DNA from: Myxococcales bacterium | GTDB lineage: Bacteria > Myxococcota_A > Polyangia > Palsa-1104 > JAEUJZ01 | Length of the DNA stretch: 64,000 nucleotides | Assembly: GCA_016794365.1 (NCBI GenBank) | Contig: JAEUKB010000009.1 | Span: 8,355 to 72,354, forward strand | Direction of reading: 5' to 3' | In this document: positions 2,497-54,000 of the stretch, one piece after another | Numbering within the stretch: position 1 is the stretch's first letter | Layout of the letters: every line of letters begins with the position of its first letter | The notes under the pieces: generated by a model | What the model was told of the DNA's origin: nothing | Databases searched by the model: none | The model's input: the letters and a program-made list of their open reading frames with translations, nothing else | Position numbers and translations under genes: made by a program

Positions 2497-4086
2497 TTAT
2501 CCGGGCGCAGCGTGAGCCTCCGAGCCAGCCCGCGATGCGTCCCGCAGTCGAGCGGCCTGGGCGCTGATGTCGGCTTTTTGTTCAGCGGACAGGCGCGACA
2601 GGTTCTTGACCTGCATGACCATGCGCGGGTTTTTGGACAGCCGCGACTCATGACGGAGCAGAAAGTCCCAGTACAGCGTCGTAAACGGACAGGCGGAAGG
2701 CCCGACCGAGACGGCAGGATCGAAGCGGCAGCCCTGGCAGTGGTTGCTCATGCGCTGGATGTACTTGCCGGATGCTGCGTAGGGCTTGCTGCCGAGCAGT
2801 CCTCCGTCTGCAAATTGGCTCATTCCGAGCGTGTTGGGCAGCTCGACCCACTCGATGGCATCGACGTAGACCGACAGATACCACTCGTGGACTTGCTGCG
2901 GGGTGACGCCGAGCAGCAGCGCATACAGGCCGGTTACCATCAGCCGCTGGATGTGATGCGCGTAGCCAAAGCGCAGGGTCTGGCGGATGACATCGCGCAA
3001 GCAGGCCATGTCGGTGTCGCCGGTCCAGTAGAACGCGGGCAGCGGCTCGTGGGCCGCTAGCTCGTTTTTGTGTAGATAGCCGGGCATCTGGGTGAAGTAG
3101 ATGCCTCGGACATACTCACGCCAGCCGAGGATCTGACGGACAAAGCCTTCGGTCGCCGCCAAGGGAACCCGTCCCGCCGCAAAGGCGTCCAGTGTCGCAG
3201 CGATGACTTCCCGAGGATCGAGCAGCTTCAGGTTCATCGCCGCCGAGAGGTGCGAGTGATAGAGCCACGCTTGCCCTTCCCACATCGCGTCTTGGTAGCG
3301 GCCAAAGTCGGGCAGGCGGTGCGTGACAAACTCCGCAAGGGCTGTCTGCGCCTGCGCGCGCGTCACTGGCCAGGCAAAGTCATCAAGCGTCCCCGGATGC
3401 GAGGCAAAGCGTGCGTTCACCAGCGCAATCACCTGCTGCGTGATCTCATCGGGCGGAAACCGCGTTGGTGGAGGCACAAGACCCGGACCCTTGTGGCCAA
3501 ACGACTCGCGGTTGTCTTCGTCATAGTTCCACTGTCCGCCGAGCGGCTTGTTTCCGTCCATCAAGATGCCGGTCTTTTGCCGGAGCTCGCGATAGAAAAA
3601 CTCCAGGCGAAGCTGCTTCCGTCCGGCGGCATGCGCGGCAAAGTCGGCGACGGTGCTGTAGAAGTGTCGATCGGTCCGTACGAGCAGCGGCACCTTACAG
3701 TCCTGGGCCACCGCTTCCAGGGCAGTGCGCACCCGCAGATCACCTGGCTCGGTCACAATCAGCGCCTTGGGCTTGTGCGTCTGAAGGGTCTGCCGGAGCA
3801 CTTCGGCCAAGCTGCCGGGATTTTTGTCGTCATCGAGCTTCGTATACAGAAGGGGCCGTGCCAGCTCCGTCAGGCGGAGCGCAAAGTGCCGCATGGCGGT
3901 CAGAAACAGGGCGGTGCGCTGTTTGCTGGACCAGATGTGGGTAGACTCTTCGGCGACTTCGGCCATCCACACGGCGTCGCAGTCGCTGGAAAAGCCATCA
4001 AAGGCGGCGGCCTGTTCGTCGAGCTGATCACCGAGAACGACGACCAGATGACGGAGCGGGCGGGGAATCGGCAACGTGGGCTGCAT
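2497..4086 (-). CDS. Cryptochrome/photolyase-family protein, FeS-BCP/PhrB-like ((6-4) photolyase-related)
   Basis: A 529-aa protein with an N-terminal LVVVLGDQL photolyase fold and FAD-binding region, plus a C-terminal Cys cluster NHCQGCRFDP...C typical of bacterial FeS cryptochrome/photolyases. Confidence 0.8.
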   Translation of the reverse strand: MQPTLPIPRPLRHLVVVLGDQLDEQAAAFDGFSSDCDAVWMAEVAEESTHIWSSKQRTALFLTAMRHFALRLTELARPLLYTKLDDDKNPGSLAEVLRQTLQTHKPKALIVTEPGDLRVRTALEAVAQDCKVPLLVRTDRHFYSTVADFAAHAAGRKQLRLEFFYRELRQKTGILMDGNKPLGGQWNYDEDNRESFGHKGPGLVPPPTRFPPDEITQQVIALVNARFASHPGTLDDFAWPVTRAQAQTALAEFVTHRLPDFGRYQDAMWEGQAWLYHSHLSAAMNLKLLDPREVIAATLDAFAAGRVPLAATEGFVRQILGWREYVRGIYFTQMPGYLHKNELAAHEPLPAFYWTGDTDMACLRDVIRQTLRFGYAHHIQRLMVTGLYALLLGVTPQQVHEWYLSVYVDAIEWVELPNTLGMSQFADGGLLGSKPYAASGKYIQRMSNHCQGCRFDPAVSVGPSACPFTTLYWDFLLRHESRLSKNPRMVMQVKNLSRLSAEQKADISAQAARLRDASRAGSEAHAAPG

Positions 4087-23526: not shown

Positions 23527-24195
23527 ATGGCCATCCAGAACCTCCGAGACAAGCTGCTGAAGGCGGGTCTCGTTGACAAGAAGCAGAAGGTCGCAGCCGA
23601 TACGCAAGATCGACGCGAAAAGAAGCAGCTTGGGGCTGACAAGCTCGCGGCGGAAGAGGCAGAGCGTCAGCGGCTGTTTGCCGAAAAGCAGGCGCAGGAA
23701 GCCGAGGCCAAGCGTCTCGCGGACCTGGCCAAAGCGGCAGAGCGTGCGGTCCACGAAGCGGCGAACCGGGTGCGTAACATCTGTGATCGCTGGGCGGTGC
23801 GGGTGACGCGGCCCGGACAGCGGCGCTTTTACTTTGTGCAGCGCTCGGGTCGGGTCGGGTATCTGTGGCTGCCCGATGAGCTATGTGATCAGCTCTGTCT
23901 GGGCGCGCTGGCGATCGTGGAGCGACTACCGGCAGCGGAGATTGCGACCTTGGGGAGCAAGCCAGTGGCGGTGGTGAAGAAGCCGCGCAGCCTGCTCCAG
24001 CAGCTCATTGGTCAGGTGAAAAAGGGTCAGATGCAGGTCGTCAGCGAGGAGACGCATGTGCTGCTGCCTCCCGAGCCGACCGAGCGTGTGCTGGCGATTG
24101 ATCCGTCTGCGGTGCGGTTCTGGGCGTGCAGCGGCAAGCCGCTCGGTTACTTGTCCGAAGGTGGGGCAGGCAGCGGTGAGGCGGCGACCGCGTAG
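23527..24195 (+). CDS. DUF2058-family protein (YaiL-like)
   Basis: N-terminus MAIQNLRDKLLKAGLVDKKQK matches the DUF2058 consensus start. Confidence 0.55.
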   Translation: MAIQNLRDKLLKAGLVDKKQKVAADTQDRREKKQLGADKLAAEEAERQRLFAEKQAQEAEAKRLADLAKAAERAVHEAANRVRNICDRWAVRVTRPGQRRFYFVQRSGRVGYLWLPDELCDQLCLGALAIVERLPAAEIATLGSKPVAVVKKPRSLLQQLIGQVKKGQMQVVSEETHVLLPPEPTERVLAIDPSAVRFWACSGKPLGYLSEGGAGSGEAATA

Positions 24196-25124
24196 GGATC
24201 TTTTCGCCACAAAAGCCACAGCGCAAGTCCAATGCCCGCGAGCGAGATGATCTGACTGGTCGAAAGAAAGCCGAACAGGACGCCGCGCTCGTCATCGCGC
24301 CAGATCTCGACCAGGATGCGCAGCACGGCGTAGAGCATCAAGCAGGCTCCGGCCACAAACCCTTCCTGTCGCTTGCGGGGACGCACGAATAGGTACGTCA
24401 CGCCGAACAGCAGCAGGCAGCCGAGCGACTCGTAGAGCTGGGTGGGATGAACGGGCAGCATCTGCTGACCGGCCATGATCTGATGGGCATCGAACTGGGC
24501 GCGCCAGGGTGAGCTGCCGATGGGGAAGCGGACGCCGAACAGCGAGTGGGTGACTTTGCCGTAGCAGCAGCCGTTGAGGTAGCAGCCGAGCCGACCAAAG
24601 AACAGGCCGAGCAGGATGGCCGGAGCCGCCAGGTCGGCGACGCGCAGAAAGCGAATCTTGGCCTTGCGGGTGAAGTAGACGGCATAGGCGGTGGCCATGA
24701 TGAGCCCACCGTAATAGACCAGGCCGCCGCGCCACAGCTTGGCCCAGGCCAGGCAGTCCCGGGGCGGATAGCAGACATGGCGCGCGGTGTCGCACAGGTA
24801 GTCGTAGCCACACTCGGCTGCGGTGTTGCAGCGAGAGACCAGCGCGTCAATCGCCGGAACCTTGAGCGGGTCGATACACAGGTTTACGTAGTCTTGCAGG
24901 TGTCCATCGACAAAGACGTGCAGGATGCGAGAGCCGATGACCCCGAAGATGGTCATGTACAGGTTGATGTCGATGATGTCGTCGGGGTCGAGATCGAGCT
25001 TTTTGGACTCACGGATGGTCAGGATGGCCGCAAAGAGCAGGCCAAGCGTCAGGAACGTGAAGTAGGCGGGGAAGGTGACATCCCCAAGGAGCGGCAGGAC
25101 GAACTTGGCAAGAAGTGGCTTCAC
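24147..25124 (-). CDS. lgt: Prolipoprotein diacylglyceryl transferase
   Basis: Lgt signature GRLGCYLNGCCYG; 7 TM helices; an extra Cys-rich periplasmic insertion. Confidence 0.8.
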   Translation of the reverse strand: MKPLLAKFVLPLLGDVTFPAYFTFLTLGLLFAAILTIRESKKLDLDPDDIIDINLYMTIFGVIGSRILHVFVDGHLQDYVNLCIDPLKVPAIDALVSRCNTAAECGYDYLCDTARHVCYPPRDCLAWAKLWRGGLVYYGGLIMATAYAVYFTRKAKIRFLRVADLAAPAILLGLFFGRLGCYLNGCCYGKVTHSLFGVRFPIGSSPWRAQFDAHQIMAGQQMLPVHPTQLYESLGCLLLFGVTYLFVRPRKRQEGFVAGACLMLYAVLRILVEIWRDDERGVLFGFLSTSQIISLAGIGLALWLLWRKDPYAVAASPLPAPPSDK

Positions 25125-25133
25125 GGTAGGCGC

Positions 25134-25715
25134 TTAGGCCGAGGCGGGCTTTTCGGCGAGTGCGCCGGGATCATTGGTGCTGCTGCTGCCTGCGCTCGGC
25201 TGCTCTTCCGGGGGCAGCGGATCGCGGGGACGGTCGATGAGGATCATGCCGACCCCGATGACCAGCGCCGCATCGGCGATGTTGAAGGTCGGCCACTCAT
25301 AGGTCTGCGTGGCGGTGGTGACCTTCCATAAGATGAAGTCAGTGACCCGACTGTACATGGCTCGGTCGAGCATGTTGCCAATCGCGCCACCGGCCAGCAG
25401 GCCCAGCTTGACGCCGAGCCACTTGGAGTTGCCGGGCAGCCGATACAGCCACATGCCGATGACGCCCAGGCAGACCAGGCCGATGCCAAACAAGAAGTAA
25501 CGCGCACCGGCTTGGTTGCGGAACATGCCAAAGGCCGAGCCGGGATTTTCAGAGTAGCGGAAGTCCCAGTAGCCCTTGATGACGGTCTGCGGAACCGAAA
25601 TGGCGTGGGGATAGCCCGTGGGCTTGAGGTGGTTGCGCGCCCAGATCTTGGTGCCTTGGTCGAGGCCGAAGCTAAGCAGGAACAGGAGCAGGAATGCGAC
25701 GTATTTTGACTTCAT
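25134..25715 (-). CDS. lspA: Lipoprotein signal peptidase II
   Basis: SPase II motifs FNIADAALVIG and NxGxAFG-like. Confidence 0.85.
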   Translation of the reverse strand: MKSKYVAFLLLFLLSFGLDQGTKIWARNHLKPTGYPHAISVPQTVIKGYWDFRYSENPGSAFGMFRNQAGARYFLFGIGLVCLGVIGMWLYRLPGNSKWLGVKLGLLAGGAIGNMLDRAMYSRVTDFILWKVTTATQTYEWPTFNIADAALVIGVGMILIDRPRDPLPPEEQPSAGSSSTNDPGALAEKPASA

Positions 25716-25786
25716 CGGATGGTCCTTGCGTTATATCACCGGAGCTTTCTCTTCGGCAACGCTGCGTGTACCCTGATTATTCCCGG

Positions 25787-26767
25787 CTAAGCGTGGAGCG
25801 CGGCGATGGCTTGGGCTCGCTCGGCGACTTTTTGGCGCAGCTCACTGGGGGCCTGCACTTCCACACCGGCACCAAAGCCCAAGATCCAGTTGATCAGCCA
25901 GTCGGACAGCGGGTTTTCCAGGGACACTTGTAGGCTGCCATCGCGACCGACCTGGACGCGGGCCGGATCAAAGCGGGTGCGGACCTCATACGCGAGGGAC
26001 TTGTCGAATCGCAGCTCGATGTGCGGGTGGGCGGTCTCGGGCTGAAAGAGCTGGTCGCGGCGAAACTTCTCTAGATCGAAGTCAGCGGGGACCGTGAAGG
26101 TGGGCTGATCACCGTGAACCACCACGCCGGACAGGCGCTCGACCTTGAACAGGCGAGGCTCGTTGTGGCGATGACAGCGTCCGACCAAGTACCAGGAGCC
26201 TCGGTGATTGAGCAGTGCGTAGGGATCGATGCGGCGCTGCTCGGTGAGCCCGCGCGAAGCCGAGTGATACTTGGCGCTGATCGGACGACGGGCGGTGATG
26301 GAGCGGTGTAGCTCGGACAGGAGCGACAGCTTGTGATGATCTTCGGTCTCGACGACGGACTCGCGCTCTAGGGCAAGCAGCTCGGGGGACGCTTCACCCA
26401 GGGCGGCGCGGATCTTGGCCAGCAAGCGAGCCACTGCGTCTTCGTAGGGACGCACGCCAGAGCCCGCGAGCGCACGCAGACCCAAGGTCAGCGAAAACGC
26501 TTCGGCAGCGGTCAGGCGCAGCGGACGGGTCAGTCCCTGCGGCAGCTCGGCGTAGACACAGTCGTCTTCGTCATCGATGGTCAGCAGCAGGAACTCATCG
26601 GGCGCACCTGCGGGCGGACCGACCTGGGACAGCAGATCGATGTCATCGCGCAAGGTGGTGACATCGACATCCAGCTCTTTGGCCAGCTCGGCTACGGGAA
26701 CACCCTGGCGAGCAAGCACAGCCGGGACCAGATACAGCAGGCGACGGAGACGGGCGGCGGTATCCAT
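25787..26767 (-). CDS. HTH-WYL domain transcriptional regulator (PafC-like)
   Basis: N-terminal winged HTH; WYL domain with GSWYLVGRCH. Confidence 0.7.
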   Translation of the reverse strand: MDTAARLRRLLYLVPAVLARQGVPVAELAKELDVDVTTLRDDIDLLSQVGPPAGAPDEFLLLTIDDEDDCVYAELPQGLTRPLRLTAAEAFSLTLGLRALAGSGVRPYEDAVARLLAKIRAALGEASPELLALERESVVETEDHHKLSLLSELHRSITARRPISAKYHSASRGLTEQRRIDPYALLNHRGSWYLVGRCHRHNEPRLFKVERLSGVVVHGDQPTFTVPADFDLEKFRRDQLFQPETAHPHIELRFDKSLAYEVRTRFDPARVQVGRDGSLQVSLENPLSDWLINWILGFGAGVEVQAPSELRQKVAERAQAIAALHA

Positions 26768-26774
26768 GGCAGTG

Positions 26775-27953
26775 TTAGCTCCGAGCGGCGTGGCGCGTCA
26801 TGCTGGCTTCGGCGGTGCCGGGACCGACGTTGCGACGAGAGATGGCACGAGCGGTCTCTGCGACCCGCTGGCGAACGGTGATGGGGGACAGCACGCGCAG
26901 GCTGCCTGAGGCTGAGAGGACGCGGCTGACCAAGTAGTCGGGGTTGCCGCAGTCAAACTCGACGATGGTGCCGCTTTGACCGTGATCTTCGCCGGAGTTT
27001 CGGCTGGCGGGACCGAAGTCTTCGTCGGCCACCCAGGGTGTATCGGCGCTGACAAACAGGCGGGTGCGGACCTTGGCTTCGCGCTCGAAGCGCCACGGTG
27101 AGATCGATCCCTGCTCTTGCAGCGAAAAGTCAGCCGGGATGTCAAAGTCGGGCGTTTTGGGCCGGGGCGCGACGCTGAGCTTGAGGATGCGATCGATGCG
27201 GAAGCGACGCAGGCCCTGGGCGCGGTGACAAAAGCCGACGAGCAGCCAAGCGCCTTGCCGATAGACGAGTCCATAGGGATCGACATCGCGGCTGCTGGGA
27301 CCGACGACGCCTTGCTCGTTGCTGCTGGCGTCTCCGTCGGCGACCCAGCCACTGCTGCGATGGGCGTCGTATTCAAAGGTCAGCCGCTTGCGGTTGTGGA
27401 TGGCGGTCTCGATCTGCTCTAGGTGCGACGCGAGCGAGCCGGACTTGTAGGTGGTCGGCAGGTGGACCATCACATCCAGCTGCGCGGGACCGTCGGGTGT
27501 CTCACCGCTCGACTGTGGGCTGCGCTTTCTGCGCCGACGCGCGGGCAGCCCGGACAGATCGAACATCAGCTTGCGAACGGCCAGCTCTGCGGCGTGACGA
27601 TAGGGAAAGTCGCTCTGGTGGCGAACGGCGGCGGCGGTGGCGACCAGGACGGCGACTTCATCGGGCGCGAGGACGACCTCGGGCAGGCGATACTTCTGCC
27701 TATCGATGATGTAGCCACCTTCGCTGGGTGCGTCTTCGACATCTTCTAGCGTGACGTAGCGCAGCGGAACGCCCATTTCCAGCAGCGTGGCCTTGTCGCG
27801 CTCGAAGGCGCGGGCACCCGCTTCGGGCTTGGCGCTCCGATATTCGGCGAACTGCTCACGCAGCTCGGAAAAGGCGATGGGACGCCGGGCGTCGAGAAGC
27901 AGCACAACCAAATCAAGCAGTCGCTTGGTCCGAGTATCAGAGGAGGCGTGCAT
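26775..27953 (-). CDS. HTH-WYL domain transcriptional regulator (PafB-like)
   Basis: N-terminal HTH; WYL domain with GAWLLVGFCH. It sits 7 bp upstream of the second WYL gene. Confidence 0.7.
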   Translation of the reverse strand: MHASSDTRTKRLLDLVVLLLDARRPIAFSELREQFAEYRSAKPEAGARAFERDKATLLEMGVPLRYVTLEDVEDAPSEGGYIIDRQKYRLPEVVLAPDEVAVLVATAAAVRHQSDFPYRHAAELAVRKLMFDLSGLPARRRRKRSPQSSGETPDGPAQLDVMVHLPTTYKSGSLASHLEQIETAIHNRKRLTFEYDAHRSSGWVADGDASSNEQGVVGPSSRDVDPYGLVYRQGAWLLVGFCHRAQGLRRFRIDRILKLSVAPRPKTPDFDIPADFSLQEQGSISPWRFEREAKVRTRLFVSADTPWVADEDFGPASRNSGEDHGQSGTIVEFDCGNPDYLVSRVLSASGSLRVLSPITVRQRVAETARAISRRNVGPGTAEASMTRHAARS

Positions 27954-28008
27954 GGCTGCCTCGGAAGTACTGCGCGGCGAGGCGGAAAGTCAAGGCCAGG
28001 ATGGTGGC

Positions 28009-29178
28009 TTACTCGGCTTGGTGCGGATGTCTGCGTCGGGGCGCTGGTGGTGGCGGATGGGCGACGGGCTCAAACGGCAGCGAGAGCTGGAGCGGCCCGG
28101 TGGTTGCCGCCTTGTCGGATCGGGCGTGGGCCTGGACGGCTGGCTGATCATCGTCGGTCAGACCATGTAGCGACACGCCGAGCAGGCGGATCGGACGCTG
28201 TCCGGCGGACGTTTTATCGAGCAGCGCGATGGCTCGCTGGGTGAGCTGGACGGGATCGCGGGTGACGCTTTCGCCACTTTCGCTGCGGGTGATGGTCTGG
28301 AAGTTGTCGTAGCGAACCTTGAGGGTGACGGTGCGTGCAAACTGTCCGTGACGAACCAGCCAGTCGCAGCACTCTTGGGTCAGGCTGCGGACTTCGTCTT
28401 GGATGCGGACCTTGTCGAGTAGATCGCTTGGATAGGTGGTTTCACTGCCGACGGACTTGCGCTCGCGGTGTGGCTCGACGGGGCGATCGTCTTCACCGTA
28501 GGCTAGGCGCAGGAGCAGGCGTCCGAAGCTGCCGACGAGCTGAGTGAGATCCTCTTCGCTGCGGGTGCGGACATCTTGCAGGCGCTCCAGTCCGGCGGCG
28601 CGGAGCTTTTTGGCAGTGACGGGCCCGACGCCCCACAAGGCATCGATGGGAAGCTGGGTCAGAAAGTGCTCGACGCGCTCTGGGGCGATGACGGTCAGTC
28701 CATCGGGCTTGCGCCAGCCTGAAGCAATCTTGGCCAAGAACTTGTTCGGAGCCACACCCGCCGACGCGGTGAGCCCAGTCTGCGACTTGATCTCTTGCTT
28801 GATGCGACGCGCGACCTCGACGCCAAGGGGCTGGTTCCAGGCATTTTCGGTGACATCCAGGTAGGCTTCATCGAGCGAGAGTGGCTCGACGAGCGGTGTG
28901 ACCTGGCGAAAGATGGCAAAGACCTGCTCTGAAGCGGCTTTGTAGCGGGCAAAGTCGGGCGGAACCACCCGAAGCTGCGGACACAGCGTGAGCGCGCGCG
29001 ACATCGGGATGGCCGATCGGACACCGAACTTGCGGGCTTCATAGCTGGCGGCTGCGACGACTCCGCGATGGGTTCCACCGACTGCGACAGGCTGGCCGCG
29101 TAGCTCCGGGCGATCGCGCTGCTCGACCGATGCGAAGAACGCATCCATGTCCACATGCAGGATTCGACGCACAGGCAT
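28009..29178 (-). CDS. dinB: DNA polymerase IV (Y-family)
   Basis: ILHVDMDAFFASVEQ, SLDEAYLDVT catalytic motifs; little-finger domain. Confidence 0.9.
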   Translation of the reverse strand: MPVRRILHVDMDAFFASVEQRDRPELRGQPVAVGGTHRGVVAAASYEARKFGVRSAIPMSRALTLCPQLRVVPPDFARYKAASEQVFAIFRQVTPLVEPLSLDEAYLDVTENAWNQPLGVEVARRIKQEIKSQTGLTASAGVAPNKFLAKIASGWRKPDGLTVIAPERVEHFLTQLPIDALWGVGPVTAKKLRAAGLERLQDVRTRSEEDLTQLVGSFGRLLLRLAYGEDDRPVEPHRERKSVGSETTYPSDLLDKVRIQDEVRSLTQECCDWLVRHGQFARTVTLKVRYDNFQTITRSESGESVTRDPVQLTQRAIALLDKTSAGQRPIRLLGVSLHGLTDDDQPAVQAHARSDKAATTGPLQLSLPFEPVAHPPPPAPRRRHPHQAE

Positions 29179-29215
29179 GGCGTGGGACGGCGCACACAGC
29201 GCAAGCGAGGGAGGG

Positions 29216-30418
29216 TTACTTGGCTGCGTCTTTGCTGGGACGACTGCGCAGGCCTCGGGTCAGACGGGCTTTGACCTCGATGTGCTGCCGTTCTTTGTAG
29301 GCTTCATGGCTGGACTCGCCCTGCTCGTTGGTGATGGCGGTCTGAGCGTCCATGACCTGGAACTCGGTCAGCACGTAGACAACTGCCGAGGGCTCAAACG
29401 GAACATCCTGCAAGCCAACGTGATCGATGATTTGACCGACGCGCAGCGGCAGATCGGCGACGAAGTTAATGACGCGATAGGACGCCGAAGAGAAGAAGTT
29501 GGGCTGAAGCGCAGGAATGTTGATCTCGGCGTCGGGCTGTAGCTCTGATCGGAAGCGGCGGGTTGCTGGCTGAACGTCGAAGATCTTTTCAAACGGCAGC
29601 AAGGTGTTCACCGACTGACCGGGCACCACGTAGTTAAACGGAACAAGTCGATTGCACAGCTCACGAATGACCGCGCCGAGATCTTCCCAGCGACGTGTGA
29701 TCAGGCGGAAGCGGATCTTGTCATAGACGTGGGCGGCCAGGGTGTCACGCTTGGCAAGGAGCTTGGTGATCAGGCTGTCGCGCTCTTTGCGGCTCCAGGC
29801 AAACTCGACGATGGGAAAGCCCGCAGAGCGCATCTGATCGACGATCTGAACGACCTTGGATTCGATGAGCCCGAACACCTGATCGTCGGAAACGGGCAGC
29901 TTGAACAGGACTTCGCGTCCGTCCAGATGCTGAAGCACATGCATCACCTTGAGGACGATGCAGGCATAGGTCTGATAGCGCGCTCGTCGCGAAGCCAGCA
30001 GCAGCAGCTCATGGGCGGGGACACCTTCGGCGACTTCTTCGGGAATGCGATAGCCAAAGTGCCGGGTCAGGTATTCCACGGCTTCGGCACGGAGATTTTC
30101 GAGTCGCTCCATGTCCTCGGCGCTGTCGGGCTCGAACTCGTTGACGCGCAGGAAGCGATGGACTTCGTCGAGATCGGAAAACGCGAGCTGATGCCAGTCC
30201 ACCACCGAGCTGCCCGCGAGCAGCATCCGAATCGCTTCCAGATCGAGCAGAGAGAAGCTGGAGCCATCATCGACAGCCGACTCGCGACGCCCAAGTGAGA
30301 CGCGACCCGAGCCCGGATCGGCAAGGCCACCGCTTTGTGGCACCGCAGAGCGTGAGACCGAAGGCGCAATCGATCCAGAGGTTGGCTGCGATGCGGGGTG
30401 AAGCGTCTCGTCGTTCAT
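29216..30418 (-). CDS. RelA/SpoT-like nucleotidyltransferase-fold protein (possible small alarmone synthetase-like), function unknown
   Basis: RKERDSLITKLLAKRDT (R.K...S...K), DKIRFRLI (D-x-x-G/R-x-R-h-I) and EFQVMDAQTAITNEQGESSHEAYKE, which parallels the RSH synthetase E-h-Q-I-R-T ... H-W-K-Y-K-E motif. Confidence 0.45.
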   Translation of the reverse strand: MNDETLHPASQPTSGSIAPSVSRSAVPQSGGLADPGSGRVSLGRRESAVDDGSSFSLLDLEAIRMLLAGSSVVDWHQLAFSDLDEVHRFLRVNEFEPDSAEDMERLENLRAEAVEYLTRHFGYRIPEEVAEGVPAHELLLLASRRARYQTYACIVLKVMHVLQHLDGREVLFKLPVSDDQVFGLIESKVVQIVDQMRSAGFPIVEFAWSRKERDSLITKLLAKRDTLAAHVYDKIRFRLITRRWEDLGAVIRELCNRLVPFNYVVPGQSVNTLLPFEKIFDVQPATRRFRSELQPDAEINIPALQPNFFSSASYRVINFVADLPLRVGQIIDHVGLQDVPFEPSAVVYVLTEFQVMDAQTAITNEQGESSHEAYKERQHIEVKARLTRGLRSRPSKDAAK

Positions 30419-30735
30419 GTGGTAGCCCTCGTGTGAAAACCGCCTCGGTGGATGTCGGGCCTGCGCGCTGGCGGCTTACACGGGTCGGCTTCTTAGCGCG
30501 ACCGGGCACAAGACACAAGCGCAGTGGGCCTTTCTTACACTGTCTGACTCGGCGGTCTTAGGTAAAGCGTCGTTTGGTGACGGTCTGCCGCGCCGGAGGA
30601 CAGGTGCTGGCAAACTCGGTCGATGTCCACGACTTACAGGCTAGCTGCTGGATCTGACCGTGCCAGGGCATTGAGCAGGACGATGCGCGATGAACAAAGG
30701 TGGTGCGTGGTGGATCGGGAGATCGCTTGCGGCGG

Positions 30736-31464
30736 TTAGTCGTATTTGCCGCTGCTTTCGGCATCTAGCTCTTCGCGCAGAAGGGCCAGAGCGCGGGCAT
30801 GCAAGCGTGAGGTCCAGGACTTGGACAGGCCCATGCTGGCACCGACCTGCTCCAGCGTTTGATCGTGGTAGTAGTACTGCTCGATCAGAAAGCGCTCTTT
30901 GTCGGGGAGCCGCTGCATCACCCGGCGAACCCGTCGCGCCATCTGCTGGCGTTCGAGTAGCTCCGGTGGAGGCGGTCGCTCATCGGGAAGCTGCTGCTCG
31001 TCGCGCTGGTCGAGCATGGTCACGAACACCGCCGCGATGCCACCGAGTGCGCTGGCTAGCTCTTTGACGCGCTCTTCGACCTGGGTGCCGCTGCCTGCTT
31101 CGGTTCCGCGCTCAGCCTGGGCCTGGATGTAGCTGTTGGCCTTTTCCTCGAATCGGACGCGGGCGTACTCACTGCGCGGCAGCCAGCCCATCGATCGGAG
31201 CCCGTCAAACATGGCACCTCGGACGCGGTAGTACGCAAAGGTCGTAAAGGCGACGCCGTGACGGTCGTCGTAGCGCTGTGCGGCCTCTAATAGACCTTGC
31301 ATGCCGAAGCCGACCAGATCATCGAACTCGACCATCGGCACTTGCTCGCGCAGCTTGCGTGCAATCGAGCGGACAAACGGGATGTGATCTTCAACCAGCC
31401 GCCGTTGGTCTTTCGCTGCCGGCTTCCCTGGAGCTGCGGCGGACGCTGGTTTCGACTCGGCCAT
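30736..31464 (-). CDS. RNA polymerase sigma factor, sigma-70 family (FliA/WhiG/SigB-like group 3)
   Basis: Region 2 (FTTFAYYRVRGAM), region 3, and a region 4.2 HTH (LEQVGASMGLSKSWTSRLHARAL). Confidence 0.8.
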   Translation of the reverse strand: MAESKPASAAAPGKPAAKDQRRLVEDHIPFVRSIARKLREQVPMVEFDDLVGFGMQGLLEAAQRYDDRHGVAFTTFAYYRVRGAMFDGLRSMGWLPRSEYARVRFEEKANSYIQAQAERGTEAGSGTQVEERVKELASALGGIAAVFVTMLDQRDEQQLPDERPPPPELLERQQMARRVRRVMQRLPDKERFLIEQYYYHDQTLEQVGASMGLSKSWTSRLHARALALLREELDAESSGKYD

Positions 31465-31550
31465 TTGAGTCAGTATACCGCGTGGCCGGGGACTTTTGTG
31501 GGCTTACCGCGCGTGAGCGGCTGGCGCACGGTGCGTAGTGGACCGAGTGA

Positions 31551-32423
31551 TCAGCGACGCAGCGGCCAGGTCGTTATGCCCATCGCAGCCACCACCAGCA
31601 GGGCACCCAGGTAGCCGCGCATGCCAAGCTGGGTCTCTTTGAGCAGCACGTCCAGCAACAGCGCGAGCACCGGCTGCACCAGCCCAAGCGTGGACAGTAC
31701 CGACAGATCCATGCGTCGCAAAAGGGCCAGGTAGACGCTCCAGGCGACGACGCTACCGAGCACTGCCAGAAACAACAGCGCCAGGTGGGCTTCCATCGGT
31801 GCGGCAGCGATGCGCGGCAGCGGCTCTCCTCGGAGCGGTGCCAGCAAGAGCAGCGTCAGCGCGGTATACAGCAAAAAATACAGCGTCGAGACGAGCGGCG
31901 ACAGATCCCGGGCATAGCGCTTGAGCAGCGCGCCATAGATCGGCCACATCACCGCCGAAGCCAACAGGGCAAACAGCATCGCGTTGACCTGCGCTGCACC
32001 GAGCGTCTGACCTTCCCAGAACAGCGCGCCAATGCCGAGCAGCCCGAGCGACATCCCGGCAACCCGACGAAGCAGAAGCTGCTCCAGACCGAACAGGCGC
32101 GCCACCAGCAAGGTAAACAGTGGGCTGGCTGCACAGATGACGGCGGCGGTGCCTCCTGACAGGGTCAGCTCTGCGACGTAAATGCAGGCGTAGCCAAGGC
32201 CGTTGACCAGCCCGGCAATGATCAGCGCTAGGTGCTGCTTTGGACCTTGGGGAAGGCGCAGCGGTAGCTTGCGCACGCGAACAATCGCAAGGAGCAGCAG
32301 CGTTGCAATGAAGAAGCGCAGGCTGGCTCCATACATCGGTGGATAACCCGTCAGGCAGACACGGATCGCGTGCCAGGTCGTTGACCAGATCAGGCACAGC
32401 AGCAGATAGCCAAGGATTTCCAC
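31551..32423 (-). CDS. EamA/DMT-family transporter
   Basis: 10 TM helices in two EamA repeats. Confidence 0.75.
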   Translation of the reverse strand: MEILGYLLLCLIWSTTWHAIRVCLTGYPPMYGASLRFFIATLLLLAIVRVRKLPLRLPQGPKQHLALIIAGLVNGLGYACIYVAELTLSGGTAAVICAASPLFTLLVARLFGLEQLLLRRVAGMSLGLLGIGALFWEGQTLGAAQVNAMLFALLASAVMWPIYGALLKRYARDLSPLVSTLYFLLYTALTLLLLAPLRGEPLPRIAAAPMEAHLALLFLAVLGSVVAWSVYLALLRRMDLSVLSTLGLVQPVLALLLDVLLKETQLGMRGYLGALLVVAAMGITTWPLRR

Positions 32424-32781: not shown

Positions 32782-34089
32782 TCAGCTACGACGCTGACAG
32801 AGCAGCGCAATGTGGCCAAAGCTTGGATCGGCTGCGGGCAGGATGCGCAGCGGCGGCCAGCCCGAGCGAGTGAGCAGCTCACGCAGCGCGGGCAGGGGAA
32901 ACATGCGCTGACGCAGCATCGAAAAGCGTCGGACCGATGACACGGGCTGCGGCTGGCGGGACTCGATGGTCGCGACCAAGCTGGATGCGATGCTGCCGGG
33001 CACTTGACCCAGGTCTCCGGGCTCGCGAGTCAGCGTGATGCGCGTCGGATGATGCGGACTTCGCCCGATTTGACGGTAGAGCGGCTCGCTTAGCCACTGC
33101 GTCAGCAGCTGCCAGTGGATGCGCGCGTCATCGTGGCCCAGTGCGGACTGTTCCGGCAGCTGCTCCGTTGTGATCGGCGCATCGACCAGCAGCAAGTCCC
33201 CGGTGCGCGCAACGCTACCGAGCGTGTCTTTGAGAAAGCGCGCCTCGCTGTCGAGGTGTTGGAGCGTCCCGAGCAGCACAAATACACGCTGTCTTCCGAC
33301 GGGTGACATGCGCGAAAACAGCTCGGTGTAGGTCGGTAGCTCGTGGAAGTTGCCAGCGATCGCCAGCACCGTTGTGTCGGTCTGCTCGCGGAGCCGGGTC
33401 GCAGCCTGCTGATACGCCACCTGAAGCAGCGACGGACAGATATCGAGCAGCCACAGGTCCAGTCGCTGCATACGCTGAGCCCGCAGGTGCTGGAGCAGCC
33501 TGACTTCCAAGTGTCCGTCGCCCGGTCCCAGCGCAACCACGGTCAGATCACGATCGATCTGGTGTGCCAAGATGGCTTCGGCCCAGCGCTCAAGCGGTAG
33601 GTGCTGACGGCGATGCTGCTCTTCGGGACTGCGCCGCAAGTAGCGTAGATAGGCAAGCGCGCTGTGCGACGATAGATAGAGCTGGCTTTGCTCGATGTGA
33701 CCTCCTGCGCCTGCGAGCGTGCGATCCAAGTCTTCGAGGAGCGCCAGCGGATCAAAGTGCGCGATCACGTAGCCGCTTACGCGTGGAACCGGCGGTGCCA
33801 AGTGTGCCAGCGACTTCGATAGATCCAGGTGCGACAGCGGTAGCTCGGTGGGCGAAAGACGCAGCGCTTCGACCAGCAGCAGCCGCAGCAGCGTCGCTCG
33901 CGTCGGTCGGGTCTGGCCCGCTTCGAGCAGCTTGATGGTTGCTTCCGAGAGCTTCGCCAACTTGGCGAGCCTGCGTCGGGAAAGTCCGGCTGATTCTCGA
34001 CGCACACGCAGAAGCTGCGAAAACGCAAGAAAGGGCGAGTCAACGTCCGACGAAGCGGAGACGGGATGCAAGATGCTGGGTGCTGACAT
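32782..34089 (-). CDS. XRE-type HTH fused to an EgtD-like (Methyltransf_33) SAM-dependent methyltransferase-fold domain
   Basis: N-terminal LSRRRLAKLAKLSEATIKLLE HTH. The C-terminal region is collinear with EgtD: LTVVALGPGDGHLE ~ LVELGSGTSEK; LWLLDICPSLL ~ FIPFDVDAGVL; AIAGNFHELP ~ AVCGDFEEHL; RVFVLLGTLQHL ~ RLVVFLGSTIGNL. Confidence 0.6.
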   Translation of the reverse strand: MSAPSILHPVSASSDVDSPFLAFSQLLRVRRESAGLSRRRLAKLAKLSEATIKLLEAGQTRPTRATLLRLLLVEALRLSPTELPLSHLDLSKSLAHLAPPVPRVSGYVIAHFDPLALLEDLDRTLAGAGGHIEQSQLYLSSHSALAYLRYLRRSPEEQHRRQHLPLERWAEAILAHQIDRDLTVVALGPGDGHLEVRLLQHLRAQRMQRLDLWLLDICPSLLQVAYQQAATRLREQTDTTVLAIAGNFHELPTYTELFSRMSPVGRQRVFVLLGTLQHLDSEARFLKDTLGSVARTGDLLLVDAPITTEQLPEQSALGHDDARIHWQLLTQWLSEPLYRQIGRSPHHPTRITLTREPGDLGQVPGSIASSLVATIESRQPQPVSSVRRFSMLRQRMFPLPALRELLTRSGWPPLRILPAADPSFGHIALLCQRRS

Positions 34090-48014: not shown

Positions 48015-51000
48015 TCAATACACAGACCGGTTCGCCGTGCGAGCCCAGACGCCTCGGCCTTCTTGCCACAGTCGCAGCGCCCGCCGTGCCAGCTCGATCT
48101 TGCGCTGCATGTGTAGCTCATCGTGGAACACCGTCGAGACCATCGTTCGACTGACTTTGTAGGTGCGACGCAGTCGATCGCGGCCCAAGTCGCCGATTCG
48201 CGGGGTGGGACTGGTCATCGATGCGGTCTGGCCTCCGTTTGAGTGGACGACCGCCGACTGAAGCACGGGCGGAATCGCAAAGCCCGGTGAACTGCTTCCC
48301 GGCGGATTTCCTTCGGTTGTCAGGTATTCCGCTTCGTCGCTGACCAGATAGAACGTGTTGGTCAGATCACGGACGATGCGACGCACGGCTTCATGGTTAA
48401 ACGCCGATACGAAGTCTTCGTCGTGATGTGCGATTCGCTGGCGATCGCGCGCATCAAGCGTCTGAAACCACAGGTGAACGTACTCGACGGCGGTATCGAT
48501 GGTAAACCAGGGCTCATCGACGAGACTGAGCAGCACGAAGCTACACTCTGGCCCGAGCATGTACATGCCATTTTCGCTCTGTAGCGCCGCGCGCTCTTCG
48601 GCATAGACCTTTTCCAGCGCCAGCAGCACGTCGCGATCGGTAATCTTCTGTTCTTCTCGACGGGAAGATCGCAGCCGCTCGTCGATGCTCTGAATGATGA
48701 GCGCGCCGCAGTGCTGGAGCCAAGCCGGAACCCGGAACGTCTTGTCGAGGAGAAGCTGCTCGACCGCGTGCGATTCAAAGCGCAGACCCAGACGGGCAAA
48801 CGGCTCACGCACCATGCGCTCGGCACTGGACTCGTCGAGCGGACCCAACAGCCGCAGCTTGGCAAAGTTGAGCAGCGGACCAAACAGATCCCAGCGCGCT
48901 TCGACCAGCTCTGCGTGACCGGCCAAGATGACGCGACAGACCGCGCCACCGTGAAGCAGCAGTGCCGACGCCGAGCGCAGCTCTTCCAACAGCGGAGACT
49001 GACGGCGCAGCTCCGGCGGGGTCGTCAGTCCTTCAATCAGCCCGTCCACCACGTCATGCGGCAGATCCAAGCTGCTCAGGCTTTCCTTCAGCTTCGTCGT
49101 CGCCACCTTCAAAATCGGCGGCGTTCCCGGCGGCATCAGCGACGCCAGTGCTTGACCAATCGTCGCTGCTTCGCGCCACTCACCCAGCAGATACGCGCGC
49201 CGCTCGGTGCGCAGGATCGTGTCAATTTCGTCGAGAACAATCGCCACGCTGCGATCAGGAAACTTGCGCGTCCACAGATCGACGACCGCACGCAGCGGCG
49301 GCAGCGGCTCTCCCAGCGCGAAGCCAGCCTGCGCTTTTTGCGGATCCAGGTCTTCAAACAGCTCCAGGATCATTGACTTGAGCAGCTCACGGCTCGTCGG
49401 TGCGGTCGTGTAGTCCATGCCGCGCGGAATCACCCGATAGCCTTGCTGTTCCAGTTCAAAGCGCACACGCTGAAGCAGCGAGGTCTTGCCGATCTTGCGC
49501 GGCCCGACGACCAGGAAGTTTTCCTGACGCTGACCACGAATCTCTTCGAGCAGCGAGCGACGACCGTAGAACATCTCCTCGATCAGCTCTTGGTTGGCCA
49601 GGCCCATCTTCGAGCGGAACGGCGACAGCGCTGCATACGAAGCCGCTGCTGCCAGACGACGAATCAGCTCTTCGACGGGATTGTCGTGCAGCGCCGCGTG
49701 CTGAATGTCGGTGATATCAATCGCTGCGACGTGAAACAGGTTCCGGCTCCACGACAGCACCTCGGGGGACAGCTCTGGCACGATCACAATCGCGGACAGC
49801 GACGTATCGCTGATCGTCGCTTCAATGCCCGCAAACGACGCATCCGAGCGAGCGAGCGGATTGGGCCCCGAGCCACCACTTAGCATCGGCAAGCGCTTGC
49901 GGAGATCGATCTGGACTTGTTCGAGCGTGCCGCGATCCGGCTGACTCGACGGTAGATACAGCACCACGCGCTTGAGCCACGGAAGCTGACGCTTTTCCCG
50001 AAAGCGAATCTGCACCGAGCGCAGGCTGACGGCGCTGAGATCCGCACTGCCATCTTTGCTGGTTCCATCGACCAGATCGAGTCGGAAATAGCGCGCCACC
50101 GCCTCGACAAAGCGCGGCTCTTCTTGGCCATCGACCCACTTGCGACACGAGCGCGACAGATCCAGAAACTCTTGCCAGCGACTCTGACCGCCTTGCAGGT
50201 TGGGACGATTCCAGCCGAGCACCGCTCGAACCTGCGCCGCGTTGCCACCGAGTGCGCGATCGACGCCCGCCGCATCCCACAATGGCAGCCCGCGCGTCAG
50301 GTTTCGTCCGTCGATGGTGTTGGTCAGTCCGACTTCACCTTCGACGACACCGAGCAGCGTCCGCAGCCACTCGCGCGCTGGCGGCGAACAGAATGCGTAA
50401 AACACCCGATCGCCGCTGAGCTTGTGATGGCTGATCAGCCCGAGCGCCGTCAGATCGCCCGCCATCTGTTCCAGCCAGCGACCACTTGCCTGCTCACGCG
50501 CACTTGGATCTTCCAGCGGGGATCGTCCTCGCAGCCGAGGCCGCGCTTGCTTCAGATACGTCCACAGCACGCTGCGTGAGTCGTGCAGGCTGCCTCGGAT
50601 GCGTACTTTTTTTAGCCACATCACGCGGTTCAGATCGTCGATGGTGCGCTGCTCGATCCGCACGCCTGCCGAGGCCACCACTTTGCTCGTCGGAAGCCGA
50701 TCCTTTCCAGAGATCGAATACACCGGCTGATCGACGACCATGCCTGCGCGCAGATCCGCGACATCGAGATCCACCGAGTCACTACACAGCGCCGCTAGAT
50801 ACAGCCGATGCCCGAGAGGAAGTGCGCCCCACAGCGTCGATAAAAAGGTTCCAACCCGCGCTTCAAAGGCGCTCGGCGACAGCGGCGCGCGACTTCGCTC
50901 ACGCAGCGCTTGCTCGAGCAGCGGCAGACACTCGGCGCACAGCCGCAGATCGGTGCCGGTGATGTCAATCAGCGTGCGAACCGCTGACTGTGCCGTCGAG

Positions 51001-54000
51001 GGAGTGCTCATTCCCGGCAGCCCCGGACCACTCTGCGCGGACAGCGAGCCTCCGTCGCGATGATGCAGCAAGTTGAGCAGCGCTTGTTCCAGCTCGGTGC
51101 GCATTCGTTCGTCGCTGCGCTGCTGCGAAAGTGGGTCCGCCACCACATCCAAGTCCAAGAGCTGAACCGTGCGCGGCTGCTGAAGCTCCGGCGAGGAACC
51201 GACGGAACCACTGCTATAAGGCAGCGTCTGAAGCAGAATCGCCGCCGCCTGTGGAGACACGAGCAGCAGCACGCGGCCTCGATAGGCGAGAGCAATGCGC
51301 GCACCCAGCATGTAGAGCTGACGCAGCTCGCTGTCTTCCAGACGGGCTCGCTCGGCCAGCTCTGGCAGGCCCAAGATGATCAGCCCTCGACTTGCGGTTC
51401 CCGTCCCCGACACCGGCGCATCGGCCACCGCGCGCACCACTGCATCGACGGTATCCAGACGATCCGCACTCGGCAGCCCAAGCAGCGTCCCGAGCCGCTG
51501 ACCGATCTGCTGCACCACCTCGCGCAGCGTCGGCGTCATCTGTCGCTGCGTGGTCATCGTCTGCGCGCCACTGCTCGGTGTGCGCACCGCGACGTTCACC
51601 ATGCGCCAGTCTTCCAGCGTATCGAGCGGACGCTCTGGCCAGTCGAGCCCCACCGCTTCAGCGAGCAGCTCATGTGCGTGGGCCGGAAACGCCGTCGTCA
51701 GCGCCACCGCCGACTGCGCCGGACGGATGCGCTCGAGCAGATCTTGCTTATGAACGGCAAACAGCGTCGGGAGACGCTCGCTGAAGCTATCGAACAAGGC
51801 CCGCGCCAGCGCCCGCGCTTCCCGTCGGAACTGTCCTTCAATCGTGCGCTCGGTTCGCTTGTCTCCATCGTGAGACAGCTCAATCTCGATCCGATAGCGC
51901 AGTCCGTCGGCAGCCATCGCGGCGGGACACTCGATGACCAGGCCCAGCTCTTGTCCGGGCTCCAAATCCACTGCGTCGGGATCGAGCACGCGCGCGCGCA
52001 CTTCCCGAGGCTCTACTTGCCTAACCGTCAACAGCACGCCATGCGCAGTCCGAGGCGCATCCGCCGCCAGCAGCACCGCATAACGCAGCACGCGTCGTCC
52101 CTCGGTGATGCCTAGATCTGACACCAGCCGTACGTCGAAGTCTGGCTCGGTGCGCAGCCGGGTTGCTTCCTCGCGCAGGACTTGCCACCACACCGTCAGT
52201 AGCGCGACGACGGTGGCTTGCGGACGAACCCGCAGCATTCGCGACACAAACGCGCCGGTGTGCTGTGCTGGCGGCTCTTCCGAGAGCTGCTGAAGCAGCT
52301 TCATCCGAATGCCGTTGCGATGCTGCTCGACCTGTTCTGCGACTTCATCGAGCGTGTGCGCGAGCTGCGCTTTGTTGTTTTTGCGGTCCATGTCCTGAAG
52401 GGCCGACAGCAAAAACTGCTGCTCACTGAGGAACAGCTCTTCGTCGAGAAGTCCCCACGCTTCGTCGCGATAACGATAGGACAGGTGCTCACTCGAGAGC
52501 TGATGATGACTGCGCAGCGACAACAGCGCGCGATCCACCGCTTGAGGCTGTAGCGACGCGAGCAGCTCCGCGATGCTGGTCACGTCGAAGATGCGCAGCA
52601 CACCCTGAACCATTTCGTGCAGTGCCCACGCATCGGTTGGAACATTGTCGATGCTGAGCGGCAGCGCCGATCGCGTCAGCTCGTCGGAAAGCCGCTCGTA
52701 ATACATCTGATCGAAGCCATTTTCGACGGCGACCTCGAAGCGCCAAGCCAGGCTCTCTCCGGCGGCGATGCTGGCGCTGACCTCATCGTTTTCATCCGAG
52801 CCAATCGTCGGCAGCCGTGGTCCCCAGCGTCGTGACACACCGAGCAAGAACGCACGCACCTCGGGATCGGGCAGGATCTCGGGCTGACACATGGCCTCGA
52901 TGACTTGATGCGGCAGATACAGCCGAACCCGTCCCAGATCCCCGGCCAAAAAGATGCGTTCCCAGCGCAGCGCCGAGCGCAGCAGCAGCGCCAGGTTGGT
53001 CAGCAGAAAGCGACTCGGCAGCGTCGGACCCACGGCTTCCAGCACCGCGACGATGTTGCGGAAAAACGTCGGCTCTGCGTCGTCGAAGAGCTGCGCACGA
53101 TCAAGCCGCTGGAGGTGCCGCAAAAACAGCGCCGCGACGCCATCGACGGTCAGCGGCCACGGAACCGGACGCGTATCAAGCCGCGCGTCGTAATACAAAA
53201 TCAGCTGCGGCAGCCACAGCGACAGCTCATCAATGTGTTCGGGACGAACGTGCGCTTCGATGCACTGGAGCAGATCGCCGCGCACCGCCAGCGGATCTTC
53301 GCAAAACTGCACCAGCTTCCCGAGCAGCTCCCGAGCGAGCCGCGACTGCTGCGCGTCGGCACCACTTCCCGCTCCACCGAGTGCAATCGGCAGCAACGAG
53401 TCAAAGAGCTGCGCCACCAGCAAGCGATGACGCGGCGGACGCGGCAATGGCCATGCAGCCACGTCGAACACCTCGGAGCGTCCCGTCGGCTTGGGCGGCA
53501 GCTCTCCGCCGGACTCGACATCCCCTTGCAGCATCAGCCGACACAGGTGCAGCACGCTCGCCACCGCCGGAGTTCCTCGCTCAAGCTTCGGCTTATTGGT
53601 CAGCGGCAGACGGCTCACGCTCGTCACCGATGGAACTTTCGGCTCCGACGAAGTGTAGATCGAACCAGCGATTCGTCCCTCGCGCGCGTTGCGCAGCAGC
53701 TCTCGCATCGCGACGGCGCGAATGTGCGGTCCCAGCCCGCGCAGCGCCGCGCGCAGCAGTCCCACCCGAGAGCCCGCCGCCCTGGTCCCCAGCTCGAGCA
53801 GTCGCTGGATGCTCTGTCCGTGATCGTCGTTCGGATGCGCTTCCCAGCTCGTCAGCACGCCGCCTGACAGGACAATCAGCAGTCGGAAGCCACCCTCGGC
53901 CATCGGCCTACACATCATTCGCTGCGGCGTTCCTCCCGCTGCGAGCCGCGTCACTTCCTGTCCGTCGTGGCGGAAGTCAATCGCGATGACGTGGACTTGC

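Follow-up and report, generated by a model that had tools for sequence, protein, structure and literature searches.

A PafB/PafC-like pair of WYL-domain regulators next to dinB in a myxobacterial contig

Two adjacent genes in a contig stretch of 64,000 nucleotides (nt) from an uncultured member of the Myxococcota (hereafter the window; all coordinates are positions in it) encode proteins, WYL1 and WYL2, that on sequence comparison and predicted fold are the myxobacterial counterparts of PafB and PafC, the two halves of the actinobacterial regulator PafBC. Both lie directly downstream of dinB, which encodes DNA polymerase IV (Pol IV), and a preliminary description of this DNA had joined the three genes into one DNA-damage operon. 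We consider it fairly likely that the pair, as co-translated paralogues, would work as one asymmetric heterodimer that is activated by single-stranded DNA (ssDNA) and turns on DNA-damage genes, while its neighbourhood with dinB is only a weak hint to function, since it goes back to what appears to be one rearrangement in one lineage. The two genes are:

26775..27953, minus strand: WYL1, the pafB-like gene, 392 amino acids (aa), with winged helix-turn-helix (wHTH), WYL and WCX domains (Pfam WYL and WCX)
25787..26767, minus strand: WYL2, the pafC-like gene, 326 aa, with HTH_PafC, WYL and WCX domains (Pfam; 91.5, 71.2 and 66.6 bits, respectively)

In a search of PDB sequences, WYL1 matched mycobacterial PafB best (9fnd_X, E 1.9e-17, 66.8 bits) and PafC only faintly (E 0.08, 15.4 bits), whereas WYL2 matched PafC (7p5x_AX, E 3.2e-24, 89 bits) better than PafB (E 7.6e-10, 41.8 bits), its best matches including the PafC half of 6sj9, the Arthrobacter PafBC fusion. 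AlphaFold monomer models built from 18-19 homologues and compared with the PDB by Foldseek gave the same assignment, with PafB (9fnd_X, E 1.6e-16) first for the WYL1 model, PafC (9fnd_Y, E 1.7e-17) first for the WYL2 model, and DriD, BrxR and CapW ranking below the PafB and PafC matches for both. In the models, the N-terminal domains are helical and the WYL and WCX domains that come after them are rich in beta structure; domain confidence is good (predicted local distance difference test, pLDDT, 64 for WYL1 and 74 for WYL2). The Pfam family HTH_PafC was found in WYL2 alone, while the WYL1 N-terminus aligns with the helix-turn-helix (HTH) region of PafB; across the WYL and WCX domains the two proteins share 31% identity, and their HTH regions are unrelated, as is also the case for PafB and PafC. 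These reciprocal best matches by sequence and by predicted fold agree with the preliminary description, which had called the pair PafB/PafC-like, in that order. The WCX domain that it had proposed to look for scored above the Pfam cut-off in both proteins, and the peptides it had quoted were found as given (GAWLLVGFCH in WYL1, GSWYLVGRCH in WYL2).

The pairing of the two genes is widely conserved. A scan with one genome per species yielded 80 loci (L001-L080), and the related loci L081-L083 and L084 were compared as well; 79 of the 80 were labelled myxobacterial, deltaproteobacterial or generic proteobacterial, and one, L026, Acidobacteriota. The pair occurred across the sampled loci of Polyangia, Kofleriaceae and Haliangiales, and pafC directly followed pafB wherever the contig permitted this to be seen, including all 74 loci that hold both genes complete. 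The distance from pafB stop to pafC start in these 74 pairs ranged from -11 to +44 nt, mostly as overlaps of 4-8 nt, which is the pattern expected for stoichiometric co-production, and such consistency of the WYL tandem goes far beyond chance. The flanking genes, in contrast to the strict pairing, vary by clade (cold-shock and ABC genes, OmpA and FKBP genes, or hydrolase and kinase genes in L081, L083 and L084) and are unrelated to defence or repair. A reading of the locus as a defence island was rejected, as the neighbours of pafBC are housekeeping genes and no defence genes occur beside the pair in the window or related loci. The locus binned as Acidobacteriota (L026, JBLMXA010000377.1) carries a pafB-pafC pair and upstream sequence typical of the Kofleriaceae group, and its placement may be due to a binning error or to transfer.

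The residues by which PafBC is known to work could be followed into the new proteins. The GTC of the -26 promoter element is read in Mycobacterium smegmatis by two PafB arginines, R46 and R50 (PMC8635444). Their counterparts in the alignment are WYL1 R48 and R52, both part of a motif, RAFERDK, that shows no change among 18 myxobacterial homologues. Binding of ssDNA requires the PafB WYL-domain residues R181, Y196, R204, R208, R211 and R214 (PMC11804915), four of which (R181, R208, R211 and R214) align with WYL1 R222, R249, R252 and R255, likewise invariant in the 18 homologues; PafC R201 and R204 align with WYL2 K208 and R211. The DNA-reading and ssDNA-sensing apparatus thus appears to be largely retained, because the aligned residues are conserved except for two substitutions, which are weighed below. 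WYL1 also contains an insertion of 20-25 residues in its WYL domain (~197-221) and an Arg-rich linker (131-172), both predicted to be disordered (pLDDT <50); among the sequences compared, L012-L016 have a longer WYL-domain insertion and the Kofleriaceae homologues lack it.

Around the pair, the window holds the following further genes:

30736..31464, minus strand: FliA/WhiG-like sigma factor gene, FliA/WhiG-related but below the family cut-off (153.5 versus 189.6 bits)
29216..30418, minus strand: TIGR04552-family gene, 400 aa (TIGR04552, 339.9 bits; cut-off 125)
28009..29178, minus strand: dinB, Pol IV, 389 aa (NF002677 Pol IV equivalog, 425.8 bits; cut-off 256; domains IMS, IMS_HHH and IMS_C)
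25134..25715, minus strand: lspA, a lipoprotein-maturation housekeeping gene (Pfam Peptidase_A8)
24147..25124, minus strand: lgt, a lipoprotein-maturation housekeeping gene (Pfam LGT)

Together these form a row of seven collinear genes on the minus strand (sigma factor, TIGR04552 family, dinB, pafB-like, pafC-like, lspA and lgt), with spacers of 37 nt between the TIGR04552-family gene and dinB, 55 nt between dinB and pafB, 7 nt between pafB and pafC, and 71 nt between pafC and lspA. The open reading frames (ORFs) therefore stand as first described, with dinB followed by two HTH-WYL genes at gaps of 55 and 7 base pairs. The dinB gene encodes a complete Pol IV, with the catalytic motifs HVDMDAFF and SLDEAYLD and, near the C-terminus, a clamp-binding-like QLSLPF (read by eye). 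For the TIGR04552-family protein, no Pfam domain above threshold and, in the PDB sequence search, no relative was found; its residues 211-254 matched RelA_SpoT faintly (E 0.17).

We then asked how far the dinB neighbourhood extends beyond the window, seeking dinB within up to 10 kilobases (kb) on each side of pafBC in the related loci. Both dinB and the TIGR04552-family gene flank pafBC only in the window and in its six closest relatives (L001-L006; PafB 77-94% identical), where lspA, lgt and the sigma factor gene also flank the pair as far as contigs reach, the sigma gene preceding the TIGR04552-family gene in L001 and L003-L005. Sorted by PafB identity, adjacency to dinB was found in 6 of 6 loci at >=77%, in none of the 9 informative loci at 59-74%, and in none of the 51 informative loci at ~40%. 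Conversely, none of 80 metagenomic loci with dinB homologues (45-72% identity) had pafB, pafC or the TIGR04552-family gene nearby. Conservation of the WYL pair beside dinB in related genomes had been set beforehand as a point on which the operon model could fail, and it did not hold up outside this one narrow lineage. The restriction to the window and L001-L006, with absence from 60 pafBC loci and 80 dinB loci, indicates a single rearrangement that was inherited by that lineage.

The sites of interest between the genes, where promoter-like elements were called by conservation and not by consensus match, are:

27965..27993, minus strand: promoter-like element of pafBC, TTGACT (27993..27988), 17 nt, GTACTT (27970..27965), conserved, 11 nt 5' of the pafB ATG
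29179..29215, minus strand: spacer between the TIGR04552-family gene and dinB, 37 nt, holding GCGCTGTGTGCGC, the candidate operator of the preliminary description
30490..30518, minus strand: promoter-like element of the TIGR04552-family gene, TTGTGT-N17-TAAGAA, from an alignment of the window and five relatives
25730..25759, minus strand: promoter-like element of lspA-lgt, TTGCCG-N15-TGaTATAAC (TTGCCG and TATAAC stand 18 nt apart, with TGa closing the spacer), conserved across the window and L001-L004

The pafBC element (in context, cTTGACTT-N15-aGTACTTC) lies within the spacer between dinB and pafB, where its -35 part begins 15 nt past the dinB stop codon. The pattern TTGACT-N17-GTACT matched once in the window, with 0.01 matches expected, and occurred once per locus just 5' of pafB in 20 loci, namely 17 of the 18 loci L001-L018 (all except L008) and L081-L083. 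It is kept with or without dinB upstream and was found nowhere else in ~400 kb of related loci. A canonical -35 (TTGACT) is combined in it with an invariant, non-canonical GTACT(T/C) at the place of the -10, at a spacing of 17 nt and 7-12 nt before the ATG, which leaves pafB with a very short leader. By this conservation, pafBC keeps a promoter-like element of its own and is a putatively autonomous two-gene unit. The dinB frame of L004 seems to extend into this element. The Kofleriaceae and Haliangiales loci (L019-L080) carry a different conserved element ~50 nt 5' of pafB, gcTTCCGATc-N11-GTGCGCTAGAAC, and a GTG start 7-8 nt after GTGCGCTAGAAC, a position that suggests a leaderless pafB messenger RNA in this group.

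Upstream of dinB the picture differs. The spacer to the TIGR04552-family gene ranges from 9 nt (L004) to ~40 nt among the six relatives, is not alignable and contains no promoter-like site. The preliminary description had placed a candidate operator, GCGC-TGTGTG-CGC, in this spacer; the spacer does contain GCGCTGTGTGCGC, though its length is 37 and not 36 nt, and the motif was seen in the window and partly in L001 only, being absent from L002-L006. The element of the TIGR04552-family gene, by contrast, lies in a conserved block (CTTGTGTCTTG...GCGCTAAGAAGCCG). Because the spacer is short, variable, unalignable and free of promoter-like sites, dinB is probably co-transcribed with the upstream TIGR04552-family gene from the promoter of the latter, in this lineage only. 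In L006, the element 5' of the TIGR04552-family gene keeps its TTG-type -35 but not the position of the GTC, which argues against a hybrid promoter of PafBC type for this gene. Downstream of the pair, the conserved promoter-like element in the pafC-lspA spacer marks lspA-lgt as a likely separate transcription unit. The single operon of dinB, WYL1 and WYL2 that had been proposed is thus not supported, as a promoter-like element for pafB, kept irrespective of dinB, lies in the 55-nt spacer and dinB appears to be co-transcribed with the TIGR04552-family gene.

Other searches of the same sequences were less informative. A generic sigma-70 promoter scan of positions 24000-32000 found nothing, and no common motif was found upstream of 30 metagenomic dinB homologues, whose sequences are heterogeneous. 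The sequence GCGCTAAGAAG, common to the promoter of the TIGR04552-family gene and to Kofleriaceae pafB promoters, was rejected as a regulon motif (20 matches in the window versus 22 expected at <=2 mismatches); its sole exact match in the window is the TIGR04552 promoter, and it is probably just a -10 region. The Myxococcus xanthus LexA box, CTRHAMRYBYGTTCAGS (<=2 mismatches), which belongs to another lineage and may not be that of this host, had 2 matches in the window versus 2.7 expected, both far from the locus. No terminator-like site was found in any spacer of the locus, which leaves room for read-through from dinB into pafBC. A terminator-like hairpin at 27914-27927 (minus strand) lies inside the pafB codons of an invariant KRLLDLV motif and is probably a chance match.

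We hypothesize that WYL1 and WYL2, being co-translated, most likely form one asymmetric heterodimer. In it, the wHTH domain of the PafB-like subunit would recognise promoter DNA and the WYL domain of that subunit would sense ssDNA, whereupon the heterodimer would switch on a number of DNA-damage genes. The pafBC genes would form a self-contained unit of two genes transcribed from a promoter of their own, directly upstream of which the TIGR04552-dinB unit came to lie in the lineage of the window, and dinB transcription may read through into pafBC, no terminator being detectable in the spacer. Several results weigh against a PafBC-type mechanism. Global confidence of the monomer models is low (predicted template modelling score, pTM, 0.39 for WYL1 and 0.37 for WYL2). 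Y196 of PafB, the tyrosine of the WYL motif, aligns with L237 of WYL1, and R204 aligns with A245, though R244 adjoins. Matches to the mycobacterial PafBC motif TGTCRGTG-N8-TANNNT (<=2 mismatches), which again may not be the motif of this host, are not enriched in the window (20 versus 13.9 expected), and none lies near dinB or the TIGR04552-family gene. Finally, Pup-ligase and proteasome families were not found among the Pfam-scanned ORFs of the window or of L081, L083 and L084.

Three other readings have to be weighed against this one. The preliminary description had proposed that dinB, WYL1 and WYL2 form one damage-inducible operon in which the pair controls dinB, independently of LexA, through the operator 5' of dinB. 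The shared strand, the close spacing, the spacers free of terminator-like sites and the adjacency kept in all six closest relatives speak for it, as does the rise of M. xanthus DinB after mitomycin C, which is independent of LexA and DdiA and whose regulator is yet to be identified (PMC12288472). Also in its favour, overexpression of DinB1 in M. smegmatis triggers the PafBC pathway, inducing RecA in a PafBC-dependent manner (PMC8682763), which links Pol IV to PafBC but in the direction opposite to that model. We nevertheless regard such an operon as improbable, given that the candidate operator is unconserved, in a spacer shrinking to 9 nt in L004; that dinB sits so close to the TIGR04552-family gene that it probably uses the ordinary-looking -35/-10 promoter of that gene, whose GTC is not position-conserved in L006; that pafBC has its own conserved promoter-like element; and that the linkage is missing from the 60 other informative pafBC loci and the 80 dinB loci. 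The comparative evidence does not support control of dinB by the pair, with an unconserved operator, a separate promoter-like element for pafBC and adjacency in one lineage only.

A connection in the reverse sense, in which the TIGR04552-dinB transcript reads into pafBC and the sensor rises along with Pol IV while PafBC does not regulate dinB, would be a lineage-specific means of inducing the regulator, analogous to the LexA control of pafBC in M. xanthus, where the abundance of PafB and PafC is itself damage- and LexA-regulated (PMC12288472, PMC9705874). The missing terminator between dinB and pafB, the pafB -35 starting just 15 nt after the dinB stop and the L004 dinB frame that appears to enter the promoter-like element would all fit, but the pafB promoter is intact and read-through is unneeded, and we regard this reading, too, as improbable. 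It is more doubtful still, indeed quite unlikely, that WYL1 and WYL2 are two independent homodimeric regulators like DriD, SiwR, CapW and BrxR, each acting on targets of its own, perhaps neighbouring or defence genes. Every characterised WYL transcription factor outside PafBC is indeed a homodimer, and no heterodimeric WYL protein besides PafBC and its orthologues has been reported (Schilling et al. 2025, PMC11804915); DriD, BrxR and CapW do occur among the fold matches, and the generic WYL models of PADLOC match both proteins. Against this stand the reciprocal best matches to PafB and PafC, ahead of DriD, the strict pairing with mostly overlapping frames in 74 loci, the two HTH domains that have diverged as in PafB and PafC, and neighbours that are clade-variable housekeeping genes and not defence systems.

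The PafB/PafC-like reading of the pair bears on how PafBC is understood, as this regulator has been described as the sole heterodimeric WYL transcription factor and studied only in actinobacteria. That orthologues of both subunits, with largely conserved residues for DNA reading and ssDNA binding, occur across the sampled loci of Polyangia, Kofleriaceae and Haliangiales supports the idea of a mechanism of greater age or mobility than its Pup-proteasome setting would suggest. It also makes PafBC (MXAN_1359/1360) a natural candidate for what induces DinB and ImuB in M. xanthus. One may speculate, with a slim chance of being right, that sigma adaptation of PafBC type, for which all evidence to date is actinobacterial, extends to Myxococcota through the same GTC-reading arginines, that the pair is a LexA- and DdiA-independent inducer of translesion polymerases such as DinB, and that the juxtaposition of dinB and pafBC is a genomic trace of this.

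Some other genes of the window were noted in passing. A photolyase-related gene (DPRP family, 2497-4086, minus strand) is the sole further DNA-repair-related gene recognised. A 435-aa protein with an N-terminal XRE-type HTH (HTH_31/HTH_3) is encoded at 32782-34089 (minus strand), 3.6 kb upstream of dinB; it is probably unrelated to M. xanthus DdiA, because that XRE-type protein consists merely of an HTH and two C-terminal helices (PMC12288472). An ORF of 2918 aa (48015-56771, minus strand) matches AAA_22/AAA_16 and nSTAND1 NTPase families in its C-terminal part (residues ~2406-2676), and FG-GAP and beta-propeller families match its N-terminal part faintly.

Compared with PafBC of Mycobacterium and other actinobacteria (PDB 6SJ9, 7P5X, 9FND), the window pair has the same pafB-pafC order and the same wHTH-WYL-WCX layout in both subunits, and WYL1 keeps the base-reading arginines of HTH-B and 4 of the 5 ssDNA-binding arginines of WYL-B. 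The pair differs in coming from a Gram-negative host (Myxococcota), in its identity of 20-27% to the actinobacterial proteins, and in the WYL1 leucine in place of the WYL-motif tyrosine together with the extra WYL-domain insertion. Actinobacterial PafBC is typically encoded in the pafA/Pup-proteasome locus, whereas the window pair sits amid the TIGR04552-family gene, dinB, lspA and lgt. The targets of actinobacterial PafBC have tGTCgg-N10-tAnnnT promoters without a -35 (sigma adaptation). For the window pair, no promoters of the PafBC type GTC-N12-TAnnnT were identified; the conserved promoter-like element of the TIGR04552-family gene includes a -35 of the TTG type, and no GTC keeps its position there. 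DriD of Caulobacter crescentus and SiwR of M. smegmatis share the wHTH-WYL-WCX layout and are LexA-independent activators switched on by ssDNA after DNA damage, and DriD is the next-best fold match of the window proteins after PafB and PafC; both regulators are, however, single-gene homodimers, and each window protein matches PafB or PafC better than DriD. The defence-associated WYL repressors CapW and BrxR have the same three-domain fold, and CapW senses ssDNA, but they are single-gene homodimeric repressors located beside CBASS or BREX, no defence genes flank the window pair or the related loci, and the matches are much weaker (E 1e-5 to 1e-8).

A further parallel comes from M. xanthus, for which the comparison rests on published descriptions and not on sequence. 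This myxobacterium also has a tandem wHTH-WYL pair called PafB and PafC (MXAN_1359/1360), encoded in an operon pafB-pafC-cyaA that carries an SOS box weakly bound by LexA and is LexA-repressed (Sheng et al. 2021, PMC9705874). MXAN_1359 and MXAN_1360, recognised as PafB/PafC homologues, were raised after mitomycin C and in a lexA deletion (2025 DdiA paper, PMC12288472), and 24 of the 51 genes indirectly affected by LexA were stated to carry a PafBC-binding sequence (PMC9705874). The damage-induced pair has been put forward as the mediator of the indirect branch of the SOS response (PMC9705874, PMC12288472). The two loci differ in that M. xanthus has the SOS box, cyaA downstream and dinB (MXAN_2546) elsewhere, while in the window no M. 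xanthus-type SOS box was found, dinB lies upstream and lspA-lgt downstream. Overall, myxobacterial pafBC is already known from the literature and from automated annotation, and the window pair is a further example, set in a dinB neighbourhood that is specific to its lineage.

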